From: Escherichia coli
GTDB lineage: Bacteria > Pseudomonadota > Gammaproteobacteria > Enterobacterales > Enterobacteriaceae
Strand: one strand, 5' to 3'
Assembly (NCBI RefSeq): GCF_003334305.1
Contig: NZ_QOWS01000026.1
DNA: 64,000 nucleotides
Numbering within the stretch: the first letter of the stretch is position 1; each line of letters opens with the position of its first letter. Shown here in pieces: positions 5,726 to 64,000 of this stretch. The translations under genes were made by a program, and so were the position numbers. The notes beneath the pieces are model-generated. The model saw only the letters and a program-made list of their open reading frames with translations. It was not told the DNA's origin and made no database searches.

Positions 5726-8738
<3,013 letters not shown>

Positions 8739-8743
8739 ACACT

Positions 8744-8869
8744 GCCGGATGCGGCGCGAGCGCCTTATCCGGCCTACAGGTCGGCAACAGTTGTAGGCCT
8801 GATAAGACGCGACAGCGTCGCATCAGGCATTGATTGCCGGATGCGGCACGAGCGCCTTATCCGGCCTAC
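8744..8869. repeat. REP/BIME cluster (three REP units)
   Basis: gccggatgcggcgcgagcgccttatccggcctac at 8744..8777, an inverted copy at 8793..8828, and a third at 8836..8869. Confidence 0.85.
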
Positions 8870-8912
8870 GGGTCGTGCATCTGACAACACCGAATTTACA
8901 GGAACACAGAAC

Positions 8913-9737
8913 ATGCAAAACATTACCCAGTCCTGGTTTGTCCAGGGAATGATCAAAGCCACCACCGATGCCTGGCTGAAAGGCTGGGACGAGCGCAACG
9001 GCGGCAACCTGACGCTGCGCCTGGATGACGCCGATATCGCGCCTTATAAAGACAACTTCCATGCACAACCGCGCTATATCCCGCTCAGCCAGCCCATGCC
9101 TTTACTGGCAAATACACCGTTTATTGTCACCGGCTCCGGCAAATTCTTCCGTAACGTCCAGCTTGATCCTGCAGCTAACTTAGGCGTCGTAAAAGTCGAC
9201 AGCGACGGCGCGGGCTACCATATTCTCTGGGGGTTAACCAACGAAGCCGTTCCAACTTCTGAACTTCCGGCTCACTTTCTCTCCCACTGCGAGCGCATTA
9301 AAGCCACCAACGGTAAAGATCGGGTGATCATGCACTGCCACGCCACCAACCTGATCGCCCTCACCTATGTACTGGAAAACGACACCGCGGTCTTTACTCG
9401 CCAACTGTGGGAAGGCAGCACCGAGTGTCTGGTGGTATTCCCGGATGGCGTTGGCATTCTGCCGTGGATGGTGCCCGGCACGGACGAAATCGGCCAGGCG
9501 ACCGCACAAGAGATGCAAAAACATTCGCTGGTGTTGTGGCCCTTCCACGGCGTCTTCGGCAGCGGGTCGACGTTGGATGAAACATTCGGTTTAATCGACA
9601 CCGCAGAAAAATCAGCACAAGTATTAGTGAAGGTTTATTCGATGGGCGGCATGAAACAGACCATCAGCCGTGAAGAGTTGATAGCGCTCGGCAAGCGCTT
9701 CGGCGTTACACCACTAGCCAGTGCGCTGGCGCTGTAA
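8913..9737 (+). CDS. rhaD: Rhamnulose-1-phosphate aldolase
   Basis: 274 aa from ATG 8913 ([33 protein letters not shown]...); track ORF starts upstream inside the REP cluster. Confidence 0.95.
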
Positions 9738-9746
9738 GGAGCAAAC

Positions 9747-10061
9747 ATGATCCGCAAAGCCTTTGTCATGCAGGTTAACCCCGACGCTCACGAAGAGTAT
9801 CAGCGTCGGCATAACCCCATCTGGCCGGAACTGGAAGCAGTGTTGAAATCTCACGGTGCGCATAACTACGCCATTTACCTCGACAAAGCGCGTAATCTGC
9901 TGTTTGCCACGGTAGAGATTGAATCTGAAGAGCGCTGGAATGCGGTTGCCAGTACTGATGTTTGCCAACGTTGGTGGAAATATATGACCGACGTCATGCC
10001 CGCGAACCCGGATAACAGCCCGGTGAGTAGCGAACTGCAAGAAGTGTTTTACCTGCCGTAA
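9747..10061 (+). CDS. rhaM: L-rhamnose mutarotase
   Basis: 104 aa [33 protein letters not shown]..., recognised as RhaM (YiiL). Confidence 0.93.
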
Positions 10062-10068
10062 TTGCCTA

Positions 10069-10104
10069 ATGTGCCGGAGACGCCTCCGGCACAATATTTT
10101 TAAT
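10069..10104 (+). terminator. rhaBADM operon terminator
   Basis: Perfect stem gtgccggag/ctccggcac followed by aatattttta. Confidence 0.7.
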
Positions 10105-10373
10105 TTCGATTTGAAAAATAAACATATTACACCTTCAGTTAATATATCCCGGTAACTTATATTTCCCCGATGCATTGTGAGTAAATCACAAAAATAATGA
10201 ATAACTCATTAATGATTCATGTGGTTTATTTAAATAACCATTATGTGCATTACTCCGCAAATCTGACCTTTCACTCTGTCTCAAATTGTCATTGTTTACC
10301 GACATATCGCCTCTCATCACTTAATCGCTCCACCATTACAATTGATTAAAATATATTTCATGGAGTCCGATTA

Positions 10374-10820
10374 ATGGCAGCTCTTACTGCAAGCTGTATT
10401 GACCTGAATATTCAGGGCAATGGCGCTTATTCCATTCTGAAGCAGTTGGCGACAATGGCGTTACAAAACGGTTTTATCACCGACTCACACCAGTTCCTGC
10501 AAACCCTGCTGCTGCGCGAAAAAATGCACTCTACTGGATTTGGTTCCGGCATCGCCGTGCCGCACGGTAAAAGCGCCTGCGTTAAACAACCGTTCGTGTT
10601 ATTCGCCCGCAAAGCGCAGGCTATTGACTGGAAAGCCAGCGATGGCGAAGACGTCAATTGCTGGATCTGCCTCGGCGTGCCGCAAAGCGGCGAAGAGGAT
10701 CAGGTCAAAATCATCGGTACACTGTGTCGCAAAATTATCCACCAGGATTTTATTCACCAACTGCGACGAGGCGACGCCGACCAGGTGTTTGCCTTGTTAA
10801 ATCAAACCCTCAGCTCATAA
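10374..10820 (+). CDS. frvA: PTS fructose-like IIA component
   Basis: 148 aa ORF MAALTASCIDLNIQGNGAYSILKQLA...; PTS EIIA fold with His in GSGIAVPHGK. Confidence 0.92.
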   Translation: MAALTASCIDLNIQGNGAYSILKQLATMALQNGFITDSHQFLQTLLLREKMHSTGFGSGIAVPHGKSACVKQPFVLFARKAQAIDWKASDGEDVNCWICLGVPQSGEEDQVKIIGTLCRKIIHQDFIHQLRRGDADQVFALLNQTLSS

Positions 10821-15091: not shown

Positions 15092-15120
15092 CTGTGTCGG
15101 ATGCGCCGCATCCGACACTG
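15092..15120. terminator. Bidirectional terminator hairpin between convergent frvR and yiiG
   Basis: Perfect inverted repeat gtgtcggatgcg/cgcatccgacac immediately after frvR stop and before yiiG stop. Confidence 0.6.
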
Positions 15121-17359: not shown

Positions 17360-20300
17360 ATGCAGGTCAGCAGAAGGCAGTTCTTTAAGATCTGCGCTGG
17401 CGGTATGGCAGGCACCACGGCAGCGGCACTGGGTTTTGCACCCAGCGTAGCGCTCGCGGAAACCCGGCAGTATAAACTGCTGCGCACCCGCGAAACCCGT
17501 AATACCTGCACCTATTGTTCCGTAGGCTGTGGGCTGTTGATGTACAGCCTCGGTGACGGAGCAAAAAACGCCAAAGCATCTATCTTCCATATCGAAGGCG
17601 ATCCGGATCACCCGGTCAACCGCGGTGCACTTTGTCCGAAAGGCGCTGGCCTGGTGGATTTCATCCACTCCGAAAGCCGTCTGAAGTTTCCGGAATACCG
17701 TGCGCCAGGTTCTGATAAATGGCAGCAAATCAGTTGGGAAGAGGCGTTTGATCGCATCGCCAAACTGATGAAAGAAGACCGCGATGCTAACTACATTGCG
17801 CAAAACGCCGAAGGCGTGACTGTTAACCGCTGGCTCTCCACCGGGATGCTGTGTGCTTCCGCGTCGAGTAACGAAACCGGCTATTTAACGCAAAAATTCT
17901 CCCGCGCGCTGGGTATGCTCGCGGTCGACAACCAGGCGCGTGTCTGACACGGACCAACGGTAGCAAGTCTTGCTCCAACATTTGGTCGCGGTGCGATGAC
18001 CAACCACTGGGTCGACATCAAGAACGCCAACCTCGTCGTGGTGATGGGCGGTAACGCCGCTGAAGCTCACCCGGTCGGGTTCCGCTGGGCGATGGAAGCC
18101 AAAATTCACAACGGCGCGAAGCTGATTGTGATCGATCCTCGCTTTACGCGTACGGCGGCGGTAGCTGACTACTATGCCCCTATTCGTTCCGGTACTGACA
18201 TTGCTTTCCTGTCAGGCGTATTGCTGTACCTGCTGAACAATGAAAAATTCAACCGCGAATACACCGAAGCCTATACCAACGCAAGCCTGATAGTGCGTGA
18301 GGATTACGGCTTTGAAGATGGCCTGTTCACCGGCTACGACGCGGAAAAACGCAAGTACGATAAATCCTCCTGGACTTATGAACTGGACGAAAACGGCTTC
18401 GCCAAACGCGATACCACGCTGCAACATCCGCGCTGCGTGTGGAACTTGCTGAAACAGCACGTTTCCCGCTACACGCCAGATGTGGTTGAAAACATCTGTG
18501 GTACGCCAAAAGACGCGTTCCTGAAAGTCTGCGAATACATCGCAGAAACCAGTGCTCACGATAAAACTGCCTCGTTCCTCTATGCCCTCGGCTGGACGCA
18601 ACACTCCGTTGGTGCGCAAAACATTCGTACGATGGCGATGATCCAGCTGCTGCTCGGCAATATGGGGATGGCCGGCGGCGGCGTTAACGCCCTGCGCGGT
18701 CACTCCAATATTCAGGGGCTGACGGACCTGGGGCTGCTGTCGCAGAGTCTGCCAGGTTACATGACGCTGCCAAGCGAGAAGCAGACCGATCTGCAAACCT
18801 ACCTTACCGCCAACACGCCAAAACCGCTGCTGGAAGGCCAGGTAAACTACTGGGGCAACTACCCGAAATTCTTCGTCTCTATGATGAAGGCCTTCTTTGG
18901 TGATAAAGCGACGGCGGAAAATAGCTGGGGCTTTGACTGGTTGCCGAAGTGGGATAAAGGCTACGACGTCCTGCAATACTTCGAGATGATGAAAGAAGGC
19001 AAGGTCAATGGCTATATCTGCCAGGGCTTTAACCCTGTTGCCTCATTCCCGAACAAAAACAAAGTGATCGGTTGTCTGTCGAAACTGAAGTTCCTCGTCA
19101 CCATCGACCCGCTGAACACTGAAACCTCTAACTTCTGGCAGAACCACGGTGAGCTGAACGAAGTTGACTCGTCGAAGATCCAGACCGAAGTGTTCCGTCT
19201 GCCATCGACCTGCTTCGCAGAAGAGAACGGTTCAATCGTTAACTCAGGTCGCTGGTTGCAGTGGCACTGGAAAGGTGCGGACGCCCCGGGGATTGCGCTG
19301 ACTGATGGCGAGATCCTCTCCGGTATCTTCCTGCGCTTGCGCAAGATGTATGCCGAACAGGGTGGCGCGAACCCGGACCAGGTGCTGAACATGACCTGGA
19401 ACTACGCCATTCCGCATGAGCCGAAGTCGGAAGAAGTAGCGATGGAGAGCAACGGTAAGGCGCTGGCCGATATTACCGATCCGGCAACCGGTGCGGTTAT
19501 CGTCAAGAAAGGCCAACAACTTAGCTCGTTCGCCCAATTGCGCGATGACGGTACAACCTCCTGTGGCTGCTGGATTTTCGCCGGTAGCTGGACGCCGGAA
19601 GGCAACCAGATGGCGCGTCGTGATAACGCCGATCCGTCTGGCCTCGGTAACACGCTGGGCTGGGCATGGGCATGGCCGCTTAACCGCCGCATTCTGTATA
19701 ACCGCGCCTCCGCAGATCCGCAGGGTAACCCGTGGGATCCGAAGCGTCAGTTGCTGAAATGGGACGGCACTAAGTGGACCGGCTGGGATATTCCGGACTA
19801 CAGCGCAGCGCCTCCGGGTAGCGGCGTCGGGCCGTTTATCATGCAGCAGGAAGGCATGGGGCGTCTGTTTGCCCTCGATAAGATGGCGGAAGGTCCGTTC
19901 CCGGAACACTACGAGCCGTTTGAAACGCCGCTGGGAACTAACCCGCTGCATCCAAACGTTATCTCGAACCCGGCTGCACGTATCTTTAAAGACGACGCCG
20001 AAGCATTGGGTAAAGCCGATAAGTTCCCGTATGTCGGAACCACCTATCGTCTGACCGAGCATTTCCACTACTGGACCAAACACGCGCTGTTGAACGCGAT
20101 TTTGCAACCAGAGCAGTTTGTGGAAATCGGGGAGTCGCTGGCGAATAAACTTGGCATTGCCCAGGGCGATACCGTGAAAGTCTCCTCCAACCGTGGCTAT
20201 ATCAAGGCCAAAGCGGTGGTGACCAAACGTATTCGTACACTGAAAGTGAACGGCAAAGATATCGATACCATCGGTATTCCGATTCACTGGGGCTATGAAG

Positions 20301-20410
20301 GCGTAGCTAAAAAAGGCTTTATTGCCAATACGTTAACGCCATTCGTTGGTGATGCGAACACGCAGACGCCGGAGTTTAAGTCCTTCCTTGTGAATGTGGA
20401 AAAGGTGTAA
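17360..20410 (+). CDS. fdoG: Formate dehydrogenase-O catalytic subunit (selenoprotein; in-frame UGA at 17945..17947 read as Sec)
   Basis: ORF track shows 17360..17947 and 17996..20410 in the same frame, split only by TGA; flanking residues ..VDNQARV-U-HGPTVASLAPTFGRG.. match the Sec site of FdoG; twin-arginine signal SRRQFFK at N-terminus. Confidence 0.95.
17945..17990 (+). other. UGA-Sec codon and putative SECIS hairpin
   Basis: In-frame TGA followed by a short hairpin (gcaag/cttgc) within the ~40 nt window where bacterial SECIS elements lie. Confidence 0.65.
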
Positions 20411-22883: not shown

Positions 22884-23127
22884 TCTCTGACGTTTTCCGG
22901 GTGGCGCTGGTCGCCCGGATTACAGCTCATAGGGTGTGACGACACCATCTCTCGTATTCCGCGTTACCCATTCAAGATCATGCCGCAATTGTCTGTTTGC
23001 CTCGTTCTTCCCTCCAACACATCGATAAGGTTATGGGTATGTCACTGATGACAAGCGTATGATTGCCTGATGCGCTGCGCTTATCAGCCCTACCAATAAA
23101 CTTCAATATATTGAATTTGCATGACTT

Positions 23128-23161
23128 TGTAGGCCGGATAAGGCGTTCACGCCGCATCCGG
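23128..23161. repeat. REP element
   Basis: gtaggccggataaggcgttcacgccgcatccggc, between convergent fdhE and yiiF. Confidence 0.75.
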
Positions 23162-23212
23162 CATGAACAACGCGCACGTTGTCAGCAATCTGATTGACAT
23201 CATTTTTTCCCA

Positions 23213-24029: not shown

Positions 24030-24318
24030 TTTCATTTATTACTCAAAAATGGTTTAGTTATCGCCCAGGATGAGTTATGGATGCTATGAATATATTATAT
24101 TCAGGGATGTTTATTTTTTGATTGGATCTTTATTTGCATAATCTGAATGGTGTACCCGAAAAATGTCAGCATCCTAACAGCACCCGGATTTAAGGTGAAA
24201 TTAATCATCCATCACAGACCGGTCAGTACTGCCACCAACCGGTCTTTACTTGTTCATCGTTATAATTTTGTTGGTAACAGTTCGGGAAACAAGGAATTCC
24301 TTCCGGAACCCCCCGGTA

Positions 24319-24411
24319 TCATCCGATAGCATTGACGTCAATCATCAGCGCGACGATGAGTTTTTTTAATCGCATCATAGGGTGGCGACGTTCAGCACGA
24401 TTACGGGTCAT
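24319..24411 (-). CDS. Hypothetical 30-aa ORF downstream of antitoxin gene
   Basis: ATG at 24411 preceded by CAGGAG with a 7-nt spacer; translation MTRNRAERRHPMMRLKKLIVALMIDVNAIG. Below the ORF-track size cutoff; no homology assessed. Confidence 0.25.
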   Translation of the reverse strand: MTRNRAERRHPMMRLKKLIVALMIDVNAIG

Positions 24412-24496
24412 AGCAAAACTCCTGGGCAGGCGACCACTATGCCGCTTTCACAGGAGTTCTGAATGCTAGTGCTTTCTGTATGGCATAACCATGCCT

Positions 24497-24787
24497 CTAA
24501 CGGTTAAGTGCTTGCAGCACATGTTGCGGATCATTGGCAATCGCTCGCAGCAAAGCCTTTGCAGGCCCGGTCGGTGAACGTCGCCCCTGCTCCCAGTTAC
24601 GCAACGTGTCTACGCTTACAGAAATAAGATCGGCAAATTTAGATTGTGACAACCCTGAAGCGCGGCGTATTTCTTTGATTTTCATAGCATCAACTTCAAA
24701 AGTCCGCGAAGGCTGTCGCGTTCCTTCAATAATTTCATTCATCTGGGCCATGCTGTGAGTCAACCGCTCAAAAAGTGCCTTATCCAT
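24497..24787 (-). CDS. XRE-family HTH antitoxin-like protein (HigA-like)
   Basis: 96 aa ORF; ..IKEIRRASGLSQSKFADLISVSVDTLRNWEQGRRSPTGPAKALLRAI.. is a typical XRE helix-turn-helix; start directly abuts the toxin ORF stop. Confidence 0.75.
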   Translation of the reverse strand: MDKALFERLTHSMAQMNEIIEGTRQPSRTFEVDAMKIKEIRRASGLSQSKFADLISVSVDTLRNWEQGRRSPTGPAKALLRAIANDPQHVLQALNR

Positions 24788-25099
24788 TTACCACCTCGTA
24801 TTTAACAACCGGAGCATTGCTTTTTCCTGGGGAGACAGATCATCTTTAATACCCTTACGATAAATAAGCAGTAATCTGATCTCATAATGTTTAACCTGAT
24901 GAAAGTAAATAACCCTGACACCAGCACGTTTCCCCTTTCCTCCTGAAACCCATCGAACCTTTCTTAACCCACCAGTTTCAGGTATTACCTCACCATAGTC
25001 AGGATTCAAGGCCAGGAAAAACTGAAAACGACTGAATTCATCGTCGGTCAGCAGTTTTTGAACATCTTCAGTAAAAATTTCCGTTTCGATGAAGAGCAT
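24788..25099 (-). CDS. RelE/ParE-superfamily (HigB-like) toxin-like protein
   Basis: 103 aa ORF MLFIETEIFTEDVQKLL...GGLRKVRWVSGGKGKRAGVRVIYFHQ...LLLIYRKGIKDDLSPQEK...; motif pattern matches RelE-like toxins that pair with a downstream HTH antitoxin. Confidence 0.7.
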   Translation of the reverse strand: MLFIETEIFTEDVQKLLTDDEFSRFQFFLALNPDYGEVIPETGGLRKVRWVSGGKGKRAGVRVIYFHQVKHYEIRLLLIYRKGIKDDLSPQEKAMLRLLNTRW

Positions 25100-25136
25100 A
25101 ATTATACGCCATTGGCTTAGAGTAACAATCCTTTTT

Positions 25137-25153
25137 GTACGTCATTGACGTAC
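25137..25153. promoter_or_regulatory. Perfect palindrome, candidate operator of the toxin-antitoxin operon
   Basis: gtacgtcaTtgacgtac (8-bp arms) 38 bp upstream of the toxin start codon. Confidence 0.4.
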
Positions 25154-25215
25154 CCTTGAAACCACTAGCTTACTGATAGTGCTCCAGCAAAACCACGTCT
25201 CTGCCGGGTTTGTCT

Positions 25216-25240
25216 TTAGATTTGCGAGGCGCTTTCCAGA
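25216..25240 (-). repeat. Conserved upstream element, copy 3 (before toxin gene)
   Basis: Core tttgcgaggcgctttccaga at 25221..25240, about 120 bp upstream of the toxin ATG, in the divergent intergenic region shared with the esterase gene. Confidence 0.55.
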
Positions 25241-25327
25241 TTTTTCACGCCCGTGAATTTCCCTGTATCCATCCAGCAAAAACGGGTGTATAAGACTGTA
25301 CATTCATACAGCAAAATAAGTTCTACT

Positions 25328-26236
25328 ATGGCACTGGAAAAAGGAATTGCAGAGTTAGTCGAAAAGTTTATCGCTGCGGGTCGCCCCTCATCGCGTCAAC
25401 AAAGTATTGCGCAGCGCAGGGAGGGCTATATCGCCAGCGCTGTCCTTGCGGGTGAGACAGAAACGCGGGTAGATATTCAGACTATCGAACTTGAAGGGAT
25501 GACCTTACGAATAGTGTCGCCGCTGAATGCCCCGACATTACTCCCGACGATAATTTATTACTACGGTGGCTGTTTTGTTAGCGGCGGGTTCGCAACTCAC
25601 GACAACCAGCTGCGCCAGTTAGCCTATTACGGGCAATGTCGGGTTATTGCCGTCCAGTATCGGCTGGCACCGGAACATACTTTCCCCGCCGCCCATGATG
25701 ATGCGCAACGAGGTGCAGAAATAGTCTGGCAACACGCCGAACGACTCGGCGTTGATAAACAACGTATAACTCTTGCCGGTGACAGTGCGGGCGGACATCT
25801 GGCGCTGGTAACTGCTTTGCGATTAAAGCGTGCTGGCGAGTGGCAACCGGCACAACTCATCTTAATTTATCCTATGCTTGATGCGACTGCGCATTTCGAA
25901 AGCTACATACGCAATGGTCACGATTACATCATCACACGCGACACTTTACTGAGCGGCTTTGAGATGTATCTGCCAGGCATTGAACGCAGGCATCCTGAAG
26001 CCAGCCCTCTTTGGCGCGATGATTTCAATGGCTTGCCACCTGTACATATCATTACCGCTGAATACGACCCACTTTGCGATGAAGGTGAAGCGTTGTATCA
26101 CCGCATGACAGGGCAAGGAGTGCAATGCACCTGCCAACGCTACCTTGGCGTTATCCACGGATTTTTTCAGTTAGGTGGTATCAGCGAGGCCGCGCGATCG
26201 GCACTACGGGATGTTGCCTGGAGAGCGGGAAGGTAA
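25328..26236 (+). CDS. Alpha/beta-hydrolase fold esterase/lipase (HSL-like family)
   Basis: ORF track 25253..26236 (GTG); first ATG at 25328 (MALEKGIAELV...). Contains GDSAGG nucleophile elbow, acidic residue in EYDPL and His in GVIHGF; oxyanion-hole region reads YYGGCF rather than HGGG. Confidence 0.7.
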   Translation: MALEKGIAELVEKFIAAGRPSSRQQSIAQRREGYIASAVLAGETETRVDIQTIELEGMTLRIVSPLNAPTLLPTIIYYYGGCFVSGGFATHDNQLRQLAYYGQCRVIAVQYRLAPEHTFPAAHDDAQRGAEIVWQHAERLGVDKQRITLAGDSAGGHLALVTALRLKRAGEWQPAQLILIYPMLDATAHFESYIRNGHDYIITRDTLLSGFEMYLPGIERRHPEASPLWRDDFNGLPPVHIITAEYDPLCDEGEALYHRMTGQGVQCTCQRYLGVIHGFFQLGGISEAARSALRDVAWRAGR

Positions 26237-26251
26237 CTTCGGACCTGGGCC

Positions 26252-26284
26252 CTGAAAAGGTTTTCAGATTGAAAACCTTTTCAG
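26252..26284. terminator. Strong inverted repeat between convergent esterase gene and yiiD
   Basis: 12-bp perfect arms gaaaaggttttc / gaaaaccttttc with loop agatt; no clear U-tract on either strand. Confidence 0.35.
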
Positions 26285-26299
26285 TCAAGTAAAACGCCC

Positions 26300-41135: not shown

Positions 41136-41144
41136 TGTGAAACT

Positions 41145-41222
<78 letters not shown>

Positions 41223-44291: not shown

Positions 44292-44455
44292 TGTTTAATC
44301 CTTTTGGTTTAAACCAGATGAAGCATCTTACGCTTACGCCAAAAAAGAAAGCAATTAACGGCGTATGACTTTGCAGATAATTGTGACAAAGCTCTCTATT
44401 GACGTAATCCCAGACTTATAAGGGAGATACTCGCATTGGTGTGCGCTCACGACAG

Positions 44456-44492
44456 GTAAAAAAAAACCTGCCAGCGATGGCAGGTTTTTTAT
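44456..44492 (-). terminator. typA (bipA) rho-independent terminator
   Basis: Stem cctgccagcgatggcagg flanked by A- and T-runs, 16 bp downstream of typA stop. Confidence 0.7.
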
Positions 44493-44507
44493 AACTAAAA
44501 AACGAAA

Positions 44508-46331
44508 TTAATCGTCTTTCGGTGCGCGGTTGGCGCGGCGACGATCGTTTTCCGTCAGGTGACGTTTACGAATACGGATAGAGGTCGGAGTCACTTCTAC
44601 TAGTTCGTCATCATCGATGAACTCCAGAGCTTGTTCCAGAGTCATGCGGATAGGCGGAACCAGAACAACGGCTTCGTCAGTACCGGAAGCACGCATGTTG
44701 GTCAGTTTCTTACCGGTCAGGCAGTTTACCGTCAGGTCGTTAGAGCGGCTATGAATACCGATAATCTGACCTTCGTAAACTTCTGCACCGTGACCGAGGA
44801 ACAGCTTACCGCGATCCTGCAGACCGAACAGCGCGAACGCGACCGCTTTACCCTGACCGTTAGAGATCAGTACGCCGTTCTGACGCTGACCCACTTCACC
44901 CGGACGTACGTCGTCGTAGTGGCTGAAGGTGGAGTACAGCAGACCAGTACCGGAAGTCATGGTCATGAACTCAGAACGGAAGCCAATCAGACCACGGCTT
45001 GGGATCACGTAGTCGAGACGTACGCGGCCTTTACCGTCTGGATTCATGTTTTTCAGGTCGCCTTTACGTTCGCCCAGCGCCTGCATTACAGAACCCTGAT
45101 GCTGTTCTTCAACGTCCAGAGTCACGTTTTCATATGGCTCTTGTTTACGACCGTCGATTTCACGGAAGATAACTTTCGGACGGGATACCGCCAGTTCGAA
45201 ACCTTCACGACGCATGTTTTCGATCAGAACAGACAGGTGTAGTTCGCCACGACCAGAAACGCGGAACGCATCAGCGTCTTCGGTTTCTTCTACGCGCAGC
45301 GCAACGTTGTGTACCAGTTCTTTGTTCAGACGATCCAGGATCTGACGAGACGTTACGAACTTACCTTCTTTACCGCAGAACGGCGAGGTGTTAACGCAGA
45401 AGAACATAGAAACGGTCGGCTCATCAACGGAGAGTGCCGGCAGCGCTTCAACGTTTTGCGTGTCGCAAACGGTGTCAGAAATGTTCAGTTCGCCAAGGCC
45501 CGTGATCGCAACGATATCGCCAGCTTCCGCCAGGTCGGTTTCGATACGTTCCAGACCGAGGTGGCCCAGCACTTTACCGACTTTCGCGTTGCGGGTTTTG
45601 CCTTCGCTATCGATGATAGTGACCTGCTGGTTCGGCTTCACTTTACCGCGCTTGATGCGGCCAATGCCGATAACGCCAACATAGCTGTTGTAATCGAGCT
45701 GAGAAATCTGCATCTGGAACGGACCGTCAAGGTCAACGTCCGGCGCAGGAACGTGGTCAACAATCGCCTGGTACAGCGGGGTCATGTCTTCCGCCATATC
45801 TTCGTGGTCCAGACCCGCGATACCGTTCAGCGCAGAAGCGTAAACGATCGGGAAGTCCAACTGCTCGTCGGTCGCGTCGAGGTTAACGAACAGATCGAAT
45901 ACCTGATCCACAACCCAATCAGGACGCGCGCCAGGGCGGTCAACTTTGTTGATAACAACAATCGGCTTCAGGCCGTAAGCAAACGCTTTTTTGGTTACGA
46001 AGCGCGTTTGCGGCATCGGGCCGTCAAATGCGTCAACCACCAGCAGCACTGAGTCTACCATGGACATTACACGTTCAACTTCACCACCGAAGTCGGCGTG
46101 CCCCGGGGTATCAACGATGTTGATACGGTAATCATTCCATTTGATAGCGGTGTTTTTCGCGAGGATGGTAATCCCACGCTCTTTCTCCAAATCGTTGGAG
46201 TCCATCACGCGCTCTTGGGTTTCGGCACGAGAGTCGAACGTACCGGATTGTTGGAGCAGCTTGTCTACCAGGGTGGTTTTACCATGGTCTACGTGCGCGA
46301 TGATGGCGATATTACGCAATTTTTCGATCAC
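44508..46331 (-). CDS. typA: Ribosome-associated translational GTPase BipA/TypA
   Basis: 607 aa ORF (M)[25 protein letters not shown]...; first codon is GTG at 46331. Confidence 0.96.
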
Positions 46332-46482
46332 AACTTTGCCTCAGGCATTAGAAATAGCGCGTTATTGTACACGGATTAATCGCACTACAAAACAGGATCA
46401 CAAACATCCTCCGCAAACAAGTATTGCAGAGTCCCTTTGTGATCGCTTTCACGGAGCATAAAAAGGGTTATCCAAAGGTCAT

Positions 46483-46573
46483 TGCACCAACATGGTGCTT
46501 AATGTTTCCATTGAAGCACTATATTGGTGCAACATTCACATCGTGGTGCAGCCCTTTTGCACGATGGTGCGCA
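46483..46573. promoter_or_regulatory. NtrC enhancer-like sites upstream of glnA
   Basis: Repeated TGCACCA/TGGTGCA dyads: tgcaccaacatggtgc (46483..46498), gcactatattggtgca (46516..46531), tggtgcagcccttttgcacgatggtgcgca (46544..46573). Confidence 0.6.
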
Positions 46574-48113: not shown

Positions 48114-48346
48114 TAGTTGAAGTTGTACTACCCGGCGCAACAACGCCGGAGGTTCAAACCAGGCCCATCTGGCGTAATTGTTGCAGCCAGTTTGAACACG
48201 GACAGCGCGCAGAACCCGGAGCGTACACTGGTACGTGAGGAGTTCGAGCACTGCCCAGGTTCAAAATGGCAAATAAAATAGCCTGATGGGACTGGTTTTT
48301 AGTTGCCGTGGAAATTTCAGCCCATCTCTGCATGGGCTTTTTTCTC
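48114..48346 (+). ncRNA. glnZ: glnA 3'UTR; probable GlnZ 3'UTR-derived sRNA
   Basis: About 230 nt between glnA stop and its intrinsic terminator; assignment rests on the published location of GlnZ, not on a recognised sequence. Confidence 0.45.
48317..48346 (+). terminator. glnA terminator
   Basis: Stem agcccat / atgggct followed by tttttt. Confidence 0.7.
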
Positions 48347-51124: not shown

Positions 51125-51158
51125 GTTTCAGATTGCTGATGAAGTGCTCTTTGTTCAT

Positions 51159-51246
51159 GCCGGATGCGGCGTGAACGCCTTATCCGGCCTACAAAAGCAA
51201 TATTTTCAACAGGTTTTGTAGGCCTGATAAGCGTAGCGCATCAGGC
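51159..51246. repeat. REP/BIME (two inverted REP units)
   Basis: gccggatgcggcgtgaacgccttatccggcctac and gtaggcctgataagcgtagcgcatcaggc. Confidence 0.85.
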
Positions 51247-51313
51247 AATCTTGTTCTCAGCACATTGATGGCGCTTTCGTTTTCTACTTTGTAAACGAAG
51301 CGCCATTCACTAT

Positions 51314-53385: not shown

Positions 53386-53451
53386 AATGGTTCGTCTTTT
53401 AGCCGTTTTATTCAGTATAGATTTGCGGCGGAATCTAACAGAAAGCAAGCA

Positions 53452-53696
53452 AAGAAAAAAGGCGACAGATTACTCTGTCGCCTTTTTTCCTGACTCATAA
53501 CCCTTAACGGGTCTTACAATCCTTGCAGGCCGCCAACACACCCTGTTTTTCCTTTAGCCGGAACAATCCGTGTTGATTCCATTTCCGTTTAATTACGTCT
53601 CCGGACGTTTGTCTTCCTGACAATCCTCTGTCTTCGCCTCCTGGCGCTCCTGACCCTCATCCTGAGTCATTGTTCCTGTTAGCGTCCTCGCTCTAT
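53452..53696 (-). ncRNA. csrC: CsrC small RNA (CsrA-sequestering)
   Basis: Minus-strand region dense in GGA/AGGA motifs ending in the hairpin ggcgacagagtaatctgtcgcc plus U-tract, 67 bp upstream of yihI; ends are approximate. Confidence 0.75.
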
Positions 53697-54599: not shown

Positions 54600-54620
54600 T
54601 TTTCTTGCCTTAATGCTTGT

Positions 54621-54699
54621 GCCGGATGTGGCGTATCCGGCCCGTAAATTCAATAGATTACAATTCTACCGTTGGCCTGATAAACATAGCGCATCAGGC
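54621..54699. repeat. REP-like palindromic units
   Basis: gccggatgtggcgtatccggc and ggcctgataaacatagcgcatcaggc. Confidence 0.5.
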
Positions 54700-54724
54700 A
54701 TTACGGATCTTTTCTTTCGCCCAA

Positions 54725-54833
54725 TAAAAAACGCCCCAGTCATTACTGACTGGGGCGGCTAAAATATTCAGCCAAATCCGATTACGTGAAGTAAAAGGTC
54801 TGAAAGATAGAACATCTTACCTCTGTACCCTAC
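54725..54833 (-). ncRNA. spf: Spot 42 small RNA
   Basis: Minus-strand sequence GTAGGGTACAGAGGTAAGATGTTCTATCTTTCAGACC...GCCGCCCCAGTCAGTAATGACTGGGGCGTTTTTTATT matches Spot 42 including its terminator; lies between engB and polA as in K-12. Confidence 0.88.
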
Positions 54834-54980
54834 GCGACTAACTTTACTCTTTTTTGTTCAGTTCAGAAAGCACTTTTTGTAATTTTTTTTCAGTTGTTGC
54901 ATAGGAATTTCTAATAGCCATCACAAAACGTGACAGCTTATGTTGCTTACTTACGAAAAAAGGGCATGTTCAGGCGAATC

Positions 54981-63830: not shown

Positions 63831-63870
63831 AGAGTAGGCTGGATAAGACGCGCCAGCGTCGCATCCGGCA
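63831..63870. repeat. REP-like palindrome
   Basis: aggctggataagacgcgccagcgtcgcatccggc. Confidence 0.55.
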
Positions 63871-63889
63871 TTTTTTTCTGCGCCAATGC

Positions 63890-63916
63890 AAAAAGGCCAT
63901 CCTGACGGATGGCCTT
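63890..63916 (-). terminator. rRNA operon terminator
   Basis: Stem ggccatcctgacggatggcc followed on minus strand by a T-run, directly 3' of the 5S rRNA gene. Confidence 0.7.
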
Positions 63917-63928
63917 CTGCTTAATTTG

Positions 63929-64000
63929 ATGCCTGGCAGTTCCCTACTCTCGCATGGGGAGACCCCACACTACCATCGGCGCTACGGCGTTTCACTTCTG
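63929..64000 (-). rRNA. rrf: 5S ribosomal RNA, 3' portion (runs off window end)
   Basis: Plus strand atgcctggcagttccctactctcgcatggggagaccccacactaccatcggcgctacggcgtttcacttctg is the reverse complement of the 5S rRNA 3' region. Confidence 0.9.

Follow-up and report, generated by a model that had tools for sequence, protein, structure and literature searches.

REP elements at six sites in a 64,000-base stretch of the Escherichia coli chromosome, with a BIME-2 of strain-variable unit number between rhaA and rhaD

E. coli genomes hold about 300-600 REPs each according to the literature (Ton-Hoang et al. 2012, PMC3333891). A GTAG foot, or CTAC when the unit is inverted, is part of the definition of a REP, and the orientation convention of the same authors was followed here, in which REP denotes a unit with a 5' GTAG foot and iREP a unit with a 3' CTAC foot (PMC3333891). 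BIME-2 elements are defined by alternating y and z2 units with short linkers, and variation in unit number between strains at one locus is documented for them; BIME-1 elements (RIP/RIB) are built from a y unit, an L linker with an IHF site and a z1 unit (PMC3333891). REPs of E. coli are substrates of the RAYT (TnpA-REP) transposase. The gene for this enzyme occupies a single locus, yafL–lfhA (lfhA being called fhiA there), and is carried by about two-thirds of strains (Ton-Hoang et al. 2012, PMC3333891).

Two described clusters come closest to the one treated below. EcoCyc REP299a-i lies within rhaBAD of K-12, no more than 15 nt from the upstream gene, and among eight such large REP clusters it is singled out as the sole one inside an operon (bioRxiv 10.1101/2024.07.17.603846). 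Its name was taken from that preprint because no repeat features are present at these loci in the RefSeq tables of K-12 and of strain A7. REP325 is a y/z2 tandem between co-oriented genes of an operon; the upstream mRNA is stabilised there and the downstream gene attenuated about 8-10-fold, in part through Rho (bioRxiv 10.64898/2026.03.23.713779). Across the genome, upstream/downstream expression ratios are raised in tandem gene pairs parted by REPs. The same work stresses that the effect of a REP varies with its context and that mRNA half-lives are not as a rule prolonged by terminal REPs (bioRxiv 10.64898/2026.03.23.713779).

The window, by which the whole analysed stretch of 64,000 bases is meant, was aligned with 0 mismatches to positions 183807 down to 119808 of E. 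coli strain A7 (NZ_CP028767.1). Its counterpart in K-12 MG1655 runs from about 4,103,460 down to 4,040,792, at 97.7-99.7% identity to the window. The gene order is yiiM, kdgT, sodA, rhaT, rhaRS, rhaBADM, frv, yiiG, fdhD, fdoGHI-fdhE, yiiFE, a small islet, fabY…yih (sulfoquinovose) genes, bipA, glnALG, yshB, hemN, yihI, csrC, yihA, spf, polA, yihG…mobAB and rrfA. Positions 7000-10500 were matched by megablast in 5,426 of 5,426 complete E. coli genomes, the annotated features beneath the match being rhaB, rhaA, rhaD, rhaM and frvA.

Several features of this stretch and its source genome were recorded in passing. At 24290-26299, about 2.0 kb without BLAST match to K-12 replaces about 0.47 kb of K-12 between yiiE and fabY; an alpha/beta hydrolase, a hypothetical protein and a NadS-family protein are annotated there in A7, possibly a toxin–antitoxin-like pair. 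Rfam matches at gathering score were CsrC (53443-53696, minus strand), Spot 42 (54725-54843, minus strand), ES222 (46413-46520, minus strand, upstream of glnA) and STnc370 (44455-44523, minus strand, upstream of bipA/typA). An Rfam SECIS match (17942-18000, plus strand) marks the in-frame UGA of fdoG, a gene that was split by the ORF lister into 17360-17947 and 17996-20410. A PGAP pseudogene ('frameshifted hypothetical protein', 53503-53669; A7 130138-130304) lies wholly within the CsrC sRNA gene and is most likely an annotation artefact. Far from the window, and unrelated to REPs, A7 carries a P4-like satellite/prophage island beside a tRNA-Thr gene, with an integrase, a pair formed by an ATP-dependent nuclease and a UvrD-like helicase, and psu and ogr/delta homologues.

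REP units at six sites and their arrangement

REP units at six sites had been proposed in an earlier note, together with a pattern search using REP motifs, which was run on the window. With 2 mismatches allowed, the head motif GCCGGATGCGGCG was found 20 times where shuffles predict 2.85; with 3 allowed, the tail motif CGCCTTATCCGGCCTAC was found 7 times where they predict 0.14. In 0 shuffles was either count equalled. An nhmmer profile made from the units and run over the whole window yielded 10 strong units, with E values of 1e-6 to 1e-11, and 2 weak truncated remnants (54620-54642 and 41195-41218). Matches outside the six sites were sub-significant throughout (--max, whole window). A hairpin-pattern scan agreed with nhmmer on ten full units, confined to the six listed sites. 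From the motif counts and the two scans the REP observation is therefore real, complete at site level and far beyond chance, and all six sites are occupied. The units and linkers are the following.

8743-8777, plus strand: site 1 unit a, y-type, iREP orientation (TGCC...CTAC); nhmmer E = 2e-11; RNA hairpin of -21.3 kcal/mol
8778-8792, no strand: site 1 linker of 15 nt between the CTAC and GTAG feet, AGGTCGGCAACAGTT
8793-8829, plus strand: site 1 unit b, z2-type, REP orientation (GTAG...GGCA); nhmmer E = 1.6e-9
8835-8869, plus strand: site 1 unit c, y-type, iREP orientation; found by nhmmer and hairpin pattern
23064-23093, plus strand: site 2 z1-type unit, iREP orientation, foot mutated from GGCCTAC to GCCCTAC; nhmmer E = 2.5e-7
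23094-23128, no strand: site 2 L linker of 35 nt, with an IHF-consensus match
23129-23163, plus strand: site 2 y-type unit, REP orientation; nhmmer E = 1.5e-11
41144-41178, plus strand: site 3 y-type unit, iREP orientation, 9 nt past the ompL stop codon; found by nhmmer
41196-41222, plus strand: site 3 truncated REP-like hairpin GTTGGCCGGATTAAGCACATCCGGCCA with an 8-bp stem; -15.0 kcal/mol; weak nhmmer match, E = 0.9
51158-51192, plus strand: site 4 y-type unit, iREP orientation, 34 nt past the yshB stop codon; found by nhmmer
51193-51217, no strand: site 4 L-like linker of 25 nt; best IHF-consensus match weak (2 mismatches)
51218-51247, plus strand: site 4 z1-type unit, REP orientation, intact; found by nhmmer
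54620-54642, plus strand: site 5 y-type unit, truncated by an internal deletion; weak nhmmer match
54643-54670, no strand: site 5 L-like linker with IHF-consensus match ATTCAATAGATTA, 1 mismatch, at 54648-54660
54671-54700, plus strand: site 5 degenerate z1 in REP orientation (Rz1), foot GTTG and not GTAG, between yihA and the spf 3' end; nhmmer E = 1e-6
63834-63870, plus strand: site 6 lone z2-like unit, REP orientation, 6 nt past the mobB stop codon; found by nhmmer

The coordinates of the earlier note lay within 1-3 bases of these refined ones, and the site 2 unit at 23064-23093 had been missed. The y unit claimed for site 2 is present, as part of a two-unit BIME-1 (z1, IHF-type linker, y) and not as a single unit. 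Two further stretches counted as units, 41196-41222 and 54620-54642, do hold REP-like sequence and were reclassified as truncated remnants, not full REPs.

By direct reading the units are imperfect palindromes of 30-37 nt, with y, z1 and z2 subtypes all recognisable. The GTAG/CTAC foot is present in 9 of the 10 full units, the exception being 54671-54700 (GTTG), and unit orientation alternates inside each cluster. Subtypes and feet agree with the way in which they are defined by Ton-Hoang et al. 2012 (PMC3333891). There is little doubt that the REPs of the six sites are of the standard E. coli kind and arranged as BIMEs. The REP-containing query was placed at a median of 8 positions per genome by megablast against complete E. 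coli genomes.

All REP units are extragenic and lie between annotated gene 3' ends (A7 PGAP annotation). Site 1 separates co-oriented genes, and sites 2 to 6 fall between the convergent pairs fdhE/yiiF (2), ompL/yihN (3), yshB/hemN (4), yihA/spf (5) and mobB/rrfA (6), so the proposed restriction to convergent or co-oriented gene ends holds throughout; none of the six sites falls in a divergent promoter region of the A7 annotation.

Folding energies are -13 to -22 kcal/mol for single units and -6 to -12 kcal/mol for degenerate ones. Of the stem cells in the ten units 97% are paired, with compensatory changes between y and z at two stem positions (G-C to U-A and G-C to A-U). The stem is asymmetric in every unit: either a C following GAUG and a U preceding UAUC are left unpaired, or there are AA/GC internal loops. 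Alignment column 10 is unpaired across REP units.

A perfect 12+1+12 palindrome, GTGTCGGATGCG-C-CGCATCCGACAC (15094-15118, -18.2 kcal/mol on either strand), was noted between the convergent ends of frvR and yiiG. It was rejected as a REP; CGGATGCG is shared with the units, but the GTAG foot, the stem asymmetry and the y/z loop are missing. It is probably a two-way 3'-end hairpin.

Sites 2 (23064-23163) and 4 (51158-51247) are BIME-1 elements, each with y and z1 units in inverse orientation, in single copy and joined by an L linker, and site 5 is a decayed, degenerate BIME-1. All three resemble the described BIME-1/RIP/RIB in their inverse y and z1 units, A+T-rich linkers of 25-35 nt, single copy and position at the end of a transcription unit (PMC3333891). 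They depart from it in the truncated y and degenerate z1 of site 5, in the mutated z1 foot of site 2 and in the short linker and weak IHF match of site 4. The IHF consensus WATCAANNNNTTR was matched in the L linkers with 1 mismatch at site 2 (ATTCAATATATTG, 23104-23116, minus strand) and at site 5, and with 2 mismatches at site 4; about 0.04 matches with 1 mismatch are expected per 40-nt stretch. The K-12 homologue of the site 2 z1 unit is at 4080093. Between yshB and hemN the BIME-1 is intact in the window, while in K-12 its z1 has lost 10 nt and a further z2 is present. At site 3 the stem of the truncated hairpin ends 5 nt from the yihN stop codon.

A separate difference from K-12 was seen in the glnA–glnL spacer (the glnZ sRNA region), where about 190 nt (48126-48318) are unrelated to K-12. 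A REP is present in this spacer in K-12 (4056524) and none in the window; conservation resumes at about 48319, with the 3' terminator part.

A T run straight after the REP hairpin was found by direct reading at site 6 only, where T7 (63871-63877) directly follows the unit, opposite the end of the rrnA 5S gene. The terminator scanner, which looks for Rho-independent terminators (a G+C-rich hairpin and a T run), flagged none at sites 1-4 and 6, and its sole call near site 5 was rejected as belonging to spf and not to the REP. The site 6 hairpin with its T7 run looks like a mobAB terminator by direct reading, although the scanner gave no flag. An rrn terminator hairpin sits between the 5S gene and site 6, at about 63885-63915; the 5S rRNA gene of the rrn operon (rrfA in K-12) is cut by the window end (63931-64000, minus strand).

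The rhaA–rhaD cluster and its alleles

Site 1 (8743-8869) is a BIME-2, with y and z2 units alternating over short linkers in the order iy, 15 nt, Rz2, 5 nt, iy (y–z2–y). Sequence and annotation both bear out the earlier description of three units parting rhaA from rhaD in one operon. The rhaA stop codon occupies 8736-8738, and the hairpin base of unit a begins 5 nt beyond it. Comparison with catalogued BIMEs identified the cluster with the locus of REP299a-i, nine REPs in K-12. The two are the same in locus, rhaA-side flank (GGGTAAACAC/TGCCGGATG), rhaD leader, y and z2 units, 15-nt and 5-nt linkers, and orientation. They differ in unit number, 9 against 3, the difference being three 92-bp y+z2 periods; the spacer measures 450 nt in K-12 and 174 nt here.

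Neither a sigma-70-like promoter nor an intrinsic-terminator-like site was found in the rhaA–rhaD spacer by sequence scan, which fits transcription of rhaD through the BIME from the rhaB promoter. Expression of rhaD from that promoter is the established operon structure (also bioRxiv 10.1101/2024.07.17.603846). A consensus search of the 15-nt linker (8778-8792) gave no IHF-like site. The RNA of the spacer folds at -86.3 kcal/mol (z = -6.0 vs shuffles), and in the minimum-energy fold unit a and the inverted unit b form one long hairpin, unit c folding alone.

The start drawn for rhaD by the ORF lister, ATG 8841, lies inside unit c and shares the reading frame of the true start. Annotation places the latter at 8913, preceded by AGGA at a distance of 9 nt, and the 8841-8912 extension is an ORF artefact induced by the REP.

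The Rfam model RF02564 (naRNA4) was matched at 8796-8866 on the minus strand, over units b and c, with 73.3 bits against a gathering score of 59.5. The plus strand of the same interval also scores (50.8 bits) because REPs are near-palindromic. Read literally, a score above the gathering threshold would make site 1 a discrete small RNA of the naRNA4 type, nucleoid-associated, antisense to rhaBAD and putatively HU-binding and DNA-condensing. Such a gene is very improbable here: what the model captures is simply a y–z2 pair, and a scan of both strands between 8600 and 9000 gave no promoter-like site. The function of naRNA4 is moreover disputed, the laboratories that proposed it now reporting no stable HU-naRNA4-DNA complex, no nucleoid change upon deletion or over-expression of REP325, and about 1-2 RNA copies per cell (bioRxiv 10.64898/2026.03.23.713779). 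An sRNA gene was rejected as the main reading of site 1 on these three grounds, and the Rfam match is taken to mark a REP pair.

Alleles of the spacer were compared in 12 sequences, namely K-12, ten further genomes and the window. In 11 of the 12 the number of units is 1, 3, 5, 7 or 9, always as iy(Rz2 iy)n and in 92-bp steps. The remaining one has IS1397 within the BIME; in this strain, Z1323HEC0300, the element sits in the loop of a z2 unit and parts rhaA from rhaD. IS1397 is a REP-specific insertion sequence (PMC1525189). The first y unit is kept in all sampled genomes, each time 5 nt beyond the rhaA stop codon. One strain type, of which strain a15 is an example, has a single y unit and a palindromic low-copy repeat of about 160 bp in the spacer. 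The repeat has the arms CCCTCACCCC…GGGGTGAGGG; the median number of places per genome is 3, and 787 genomes (~14%) have it complete. It is presumably akin to boxC/MITE-type elements. Rough allele frequencies were taken from an evenly spaced sample of 60 genomes.

1 unit: about 23%
1 unit with the MITE-like insert: about 13%
3 units, as in the window: about 20%
5 units: about 13%
At least 7 units, or interrupted: 28-30%

The share of the last class is in line with the 30% of genomes in which no match spans 80% or more of the query. The range of 1 to 9 units, together with the MITE-like and IS1397 insertions, suggests that the exact structure of the spacer is under weak constraint.

Possible effects on transcripts and on DNA

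The reading preferred here is that the units of site 1 would be transcribed within the flanking mRNAs and form stable G+C-rich hairpins. The effects proposed for rhaA–rhaD are extrapolated from published work on other REPs. In the rhaBAD transcript the hairpins would most likely shield the upstream rhaB-rhaA segment from decay by 3'-to-5' exonucleases, and transcription into rhaD-rhaM would probably also be partly attenuated, possibly with Rho. The first hairpin may in addition hinder termination of rhaA translation, because it begins 5 nt after the stop codon. A REP no more than 15 nt from a stop codon reportedly lowers translation and has been proposed to impede termination (work of Liang, Rudd and Deutscher, 2015). 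The net effect expected is that rhaBA would be uncoupled from rhaD expression, to an extent set by the strain-variable unit number.

REP325, the yjdM–yjdN BIME-2 from which naRNA4 derives, resembles site 1 in being a y/z2 tandem between co-oriented genes of one operon and in matching the same Rfam model. It differs in locus, in having six two-unit repeats and in that its effects on the flanking genes were measured, the effect at rha being argued by analogy. Classical studies of operons, malE-malF among them, reportedly point in the same direction as REP325 (Newbury et al. 1987; Espéli et al. 2001; Khemici and Carpousis 2004). At the convergent sites the hairpins would act as two-way 3'-end structures serving both transcripts, and the BIME-1 linkers would provide additional putative IHF binding sites.

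On a more far-reaching reading, the variation in unit number would not be neutral slippage. The number of units (1-9; 3 here) could be a selected, heritable 'dial' for the RhaB/RhaA : RhaD/RhaM ratio, which a lineage without RAYT would have frozen at an intermediate setting. Such a dial would determine the ratio of the enzymes and therefore, lineage by lineage, the flux from rhamnulose-1-phosphate to lactaldehyde. This is regarded as quite improbable.

A main role at the level of DNA was weighed against the action on transcripts. Site 1 would then be a gyrase binding and cleavage site relieving the supercoils that strong transcription of rhaBAD produces, and sites 2, 4 and 5 putative architectural sites bound by IHF where transcription units end. 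Binding of IHF, Pol I and gyrase to REP/BIME elements and a role as topological insulators are described in the literature (PMC3333891, PMC1525189). The L linkers of sites 2 and 5 contain the IHF-consensus matches given above, and all sites lie where converging or strong transcription would build positive supercoils. The match at site 4 is weak, however, and no long-range chromosome organisation dependent on REPs was found in recent work, in which control of supercoiling was not excluded (bioRxiv 10.64898/2026.03.23.713779). As the main role it is considered unlikely, while IHF at BIME-1 and gyrase at BIME-2 are plausible as additional candidate roles beside the preferred action of the hairpins on transcripts.

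Origin of the units and significance

A rayT gene was found in 3575 of 5426 E. coli genomes and is absent from about a third. At the yafL–lfhA locus of strain A7, the canonical locus, hicA/hicB are present in place of rayT. This replacement is known mainly from clade B1 (Ton-Hoang et al. 2012, PMC3333891). Since the identical genome A7 has hicAB at the normal rayT locus, the REPs of the window are probably inherited relics; most likely they are vertically inherited and no longer mobilised. They would descend from elements of the REPIN type once spread by the RAYT (TnpA-REP) transposase. The inverted REP doublets of the window, with the GTAG foot and the stem mismatch required for cleavage by TnpA-REP, resemble those of the REPIN–RAYT systems described by Bertels and Rainey, Nunvar and Ton-Hoang. 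They differ from active systems in that A7 is without rayT at its sole known chromosomal site, and the doublets here are probably immobile. Without mobilisation, changes in copy number at site 1 would arise by slippage or unequal exchange.

In strain A7, IS621 (IS110-family) lies between yiiM and cpxA, just upstream of window position 1. The insertion point is right behind the GTAG foot of a z2 REP that is present in K-12 at 4103511; IS621 is a known REP-targeting insertion sequence.

The units could on these grounds be nothing but selfish or neutral relics of RAYT spread, kept at gene 3' ends as harmless, the change in unit number being neutral slippage or unequal recombination between the 92-bp repeats. 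The replacement of rayT by hicA/hicB in A7 and the absence of rayT from a third of the genomes agree with this, as do the decayed units at 23064-23093, 41196-41222, 54620-54642 and 54671-54700 and the tolerance of the rhaA–rhaD spacer for 1 to 9 units, the MITE-like insert and IS1397. Against it stand the first y unit and its fixed 5-nt distance from the rhaA stop codon in every sampled genome, the 97% stem pairing with compensatory changes, and the presence of REPs at all six sites in K-12 as well, as seen by genome comparison. Comparable REPs also affect neighbouring genes measurably (bioRxiv 10.64898/2026.03.23.713779). Neutrality is accordingly held to be possible but rather doubtful; a selfish origin is itself compatible with a local effect at present and overlaps with the preferred action of the hairpins on transcripts.

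The REP/BIME finding at the six sites is correct, was slightly incomplete at site 2 and is ordinary: the elements, their positions and the kind of polymorphism are all known. Its significance is slight beyond correct annotation, REP/BIME elements having been described since the 1980s and the rhaA–rhaD cluster having already been catalogued in K-12. REP hairpins also explain artefacts of ORF callers, as when the rhaD ORF is drawn upstream. The rhaA–rhaD spacer is a handy natural allelic series (1, 3, 5, 7 and 9 units) for relating REP copy number to operon expression, and this series is relevant because rhaBAD parts are common in expression vectors.
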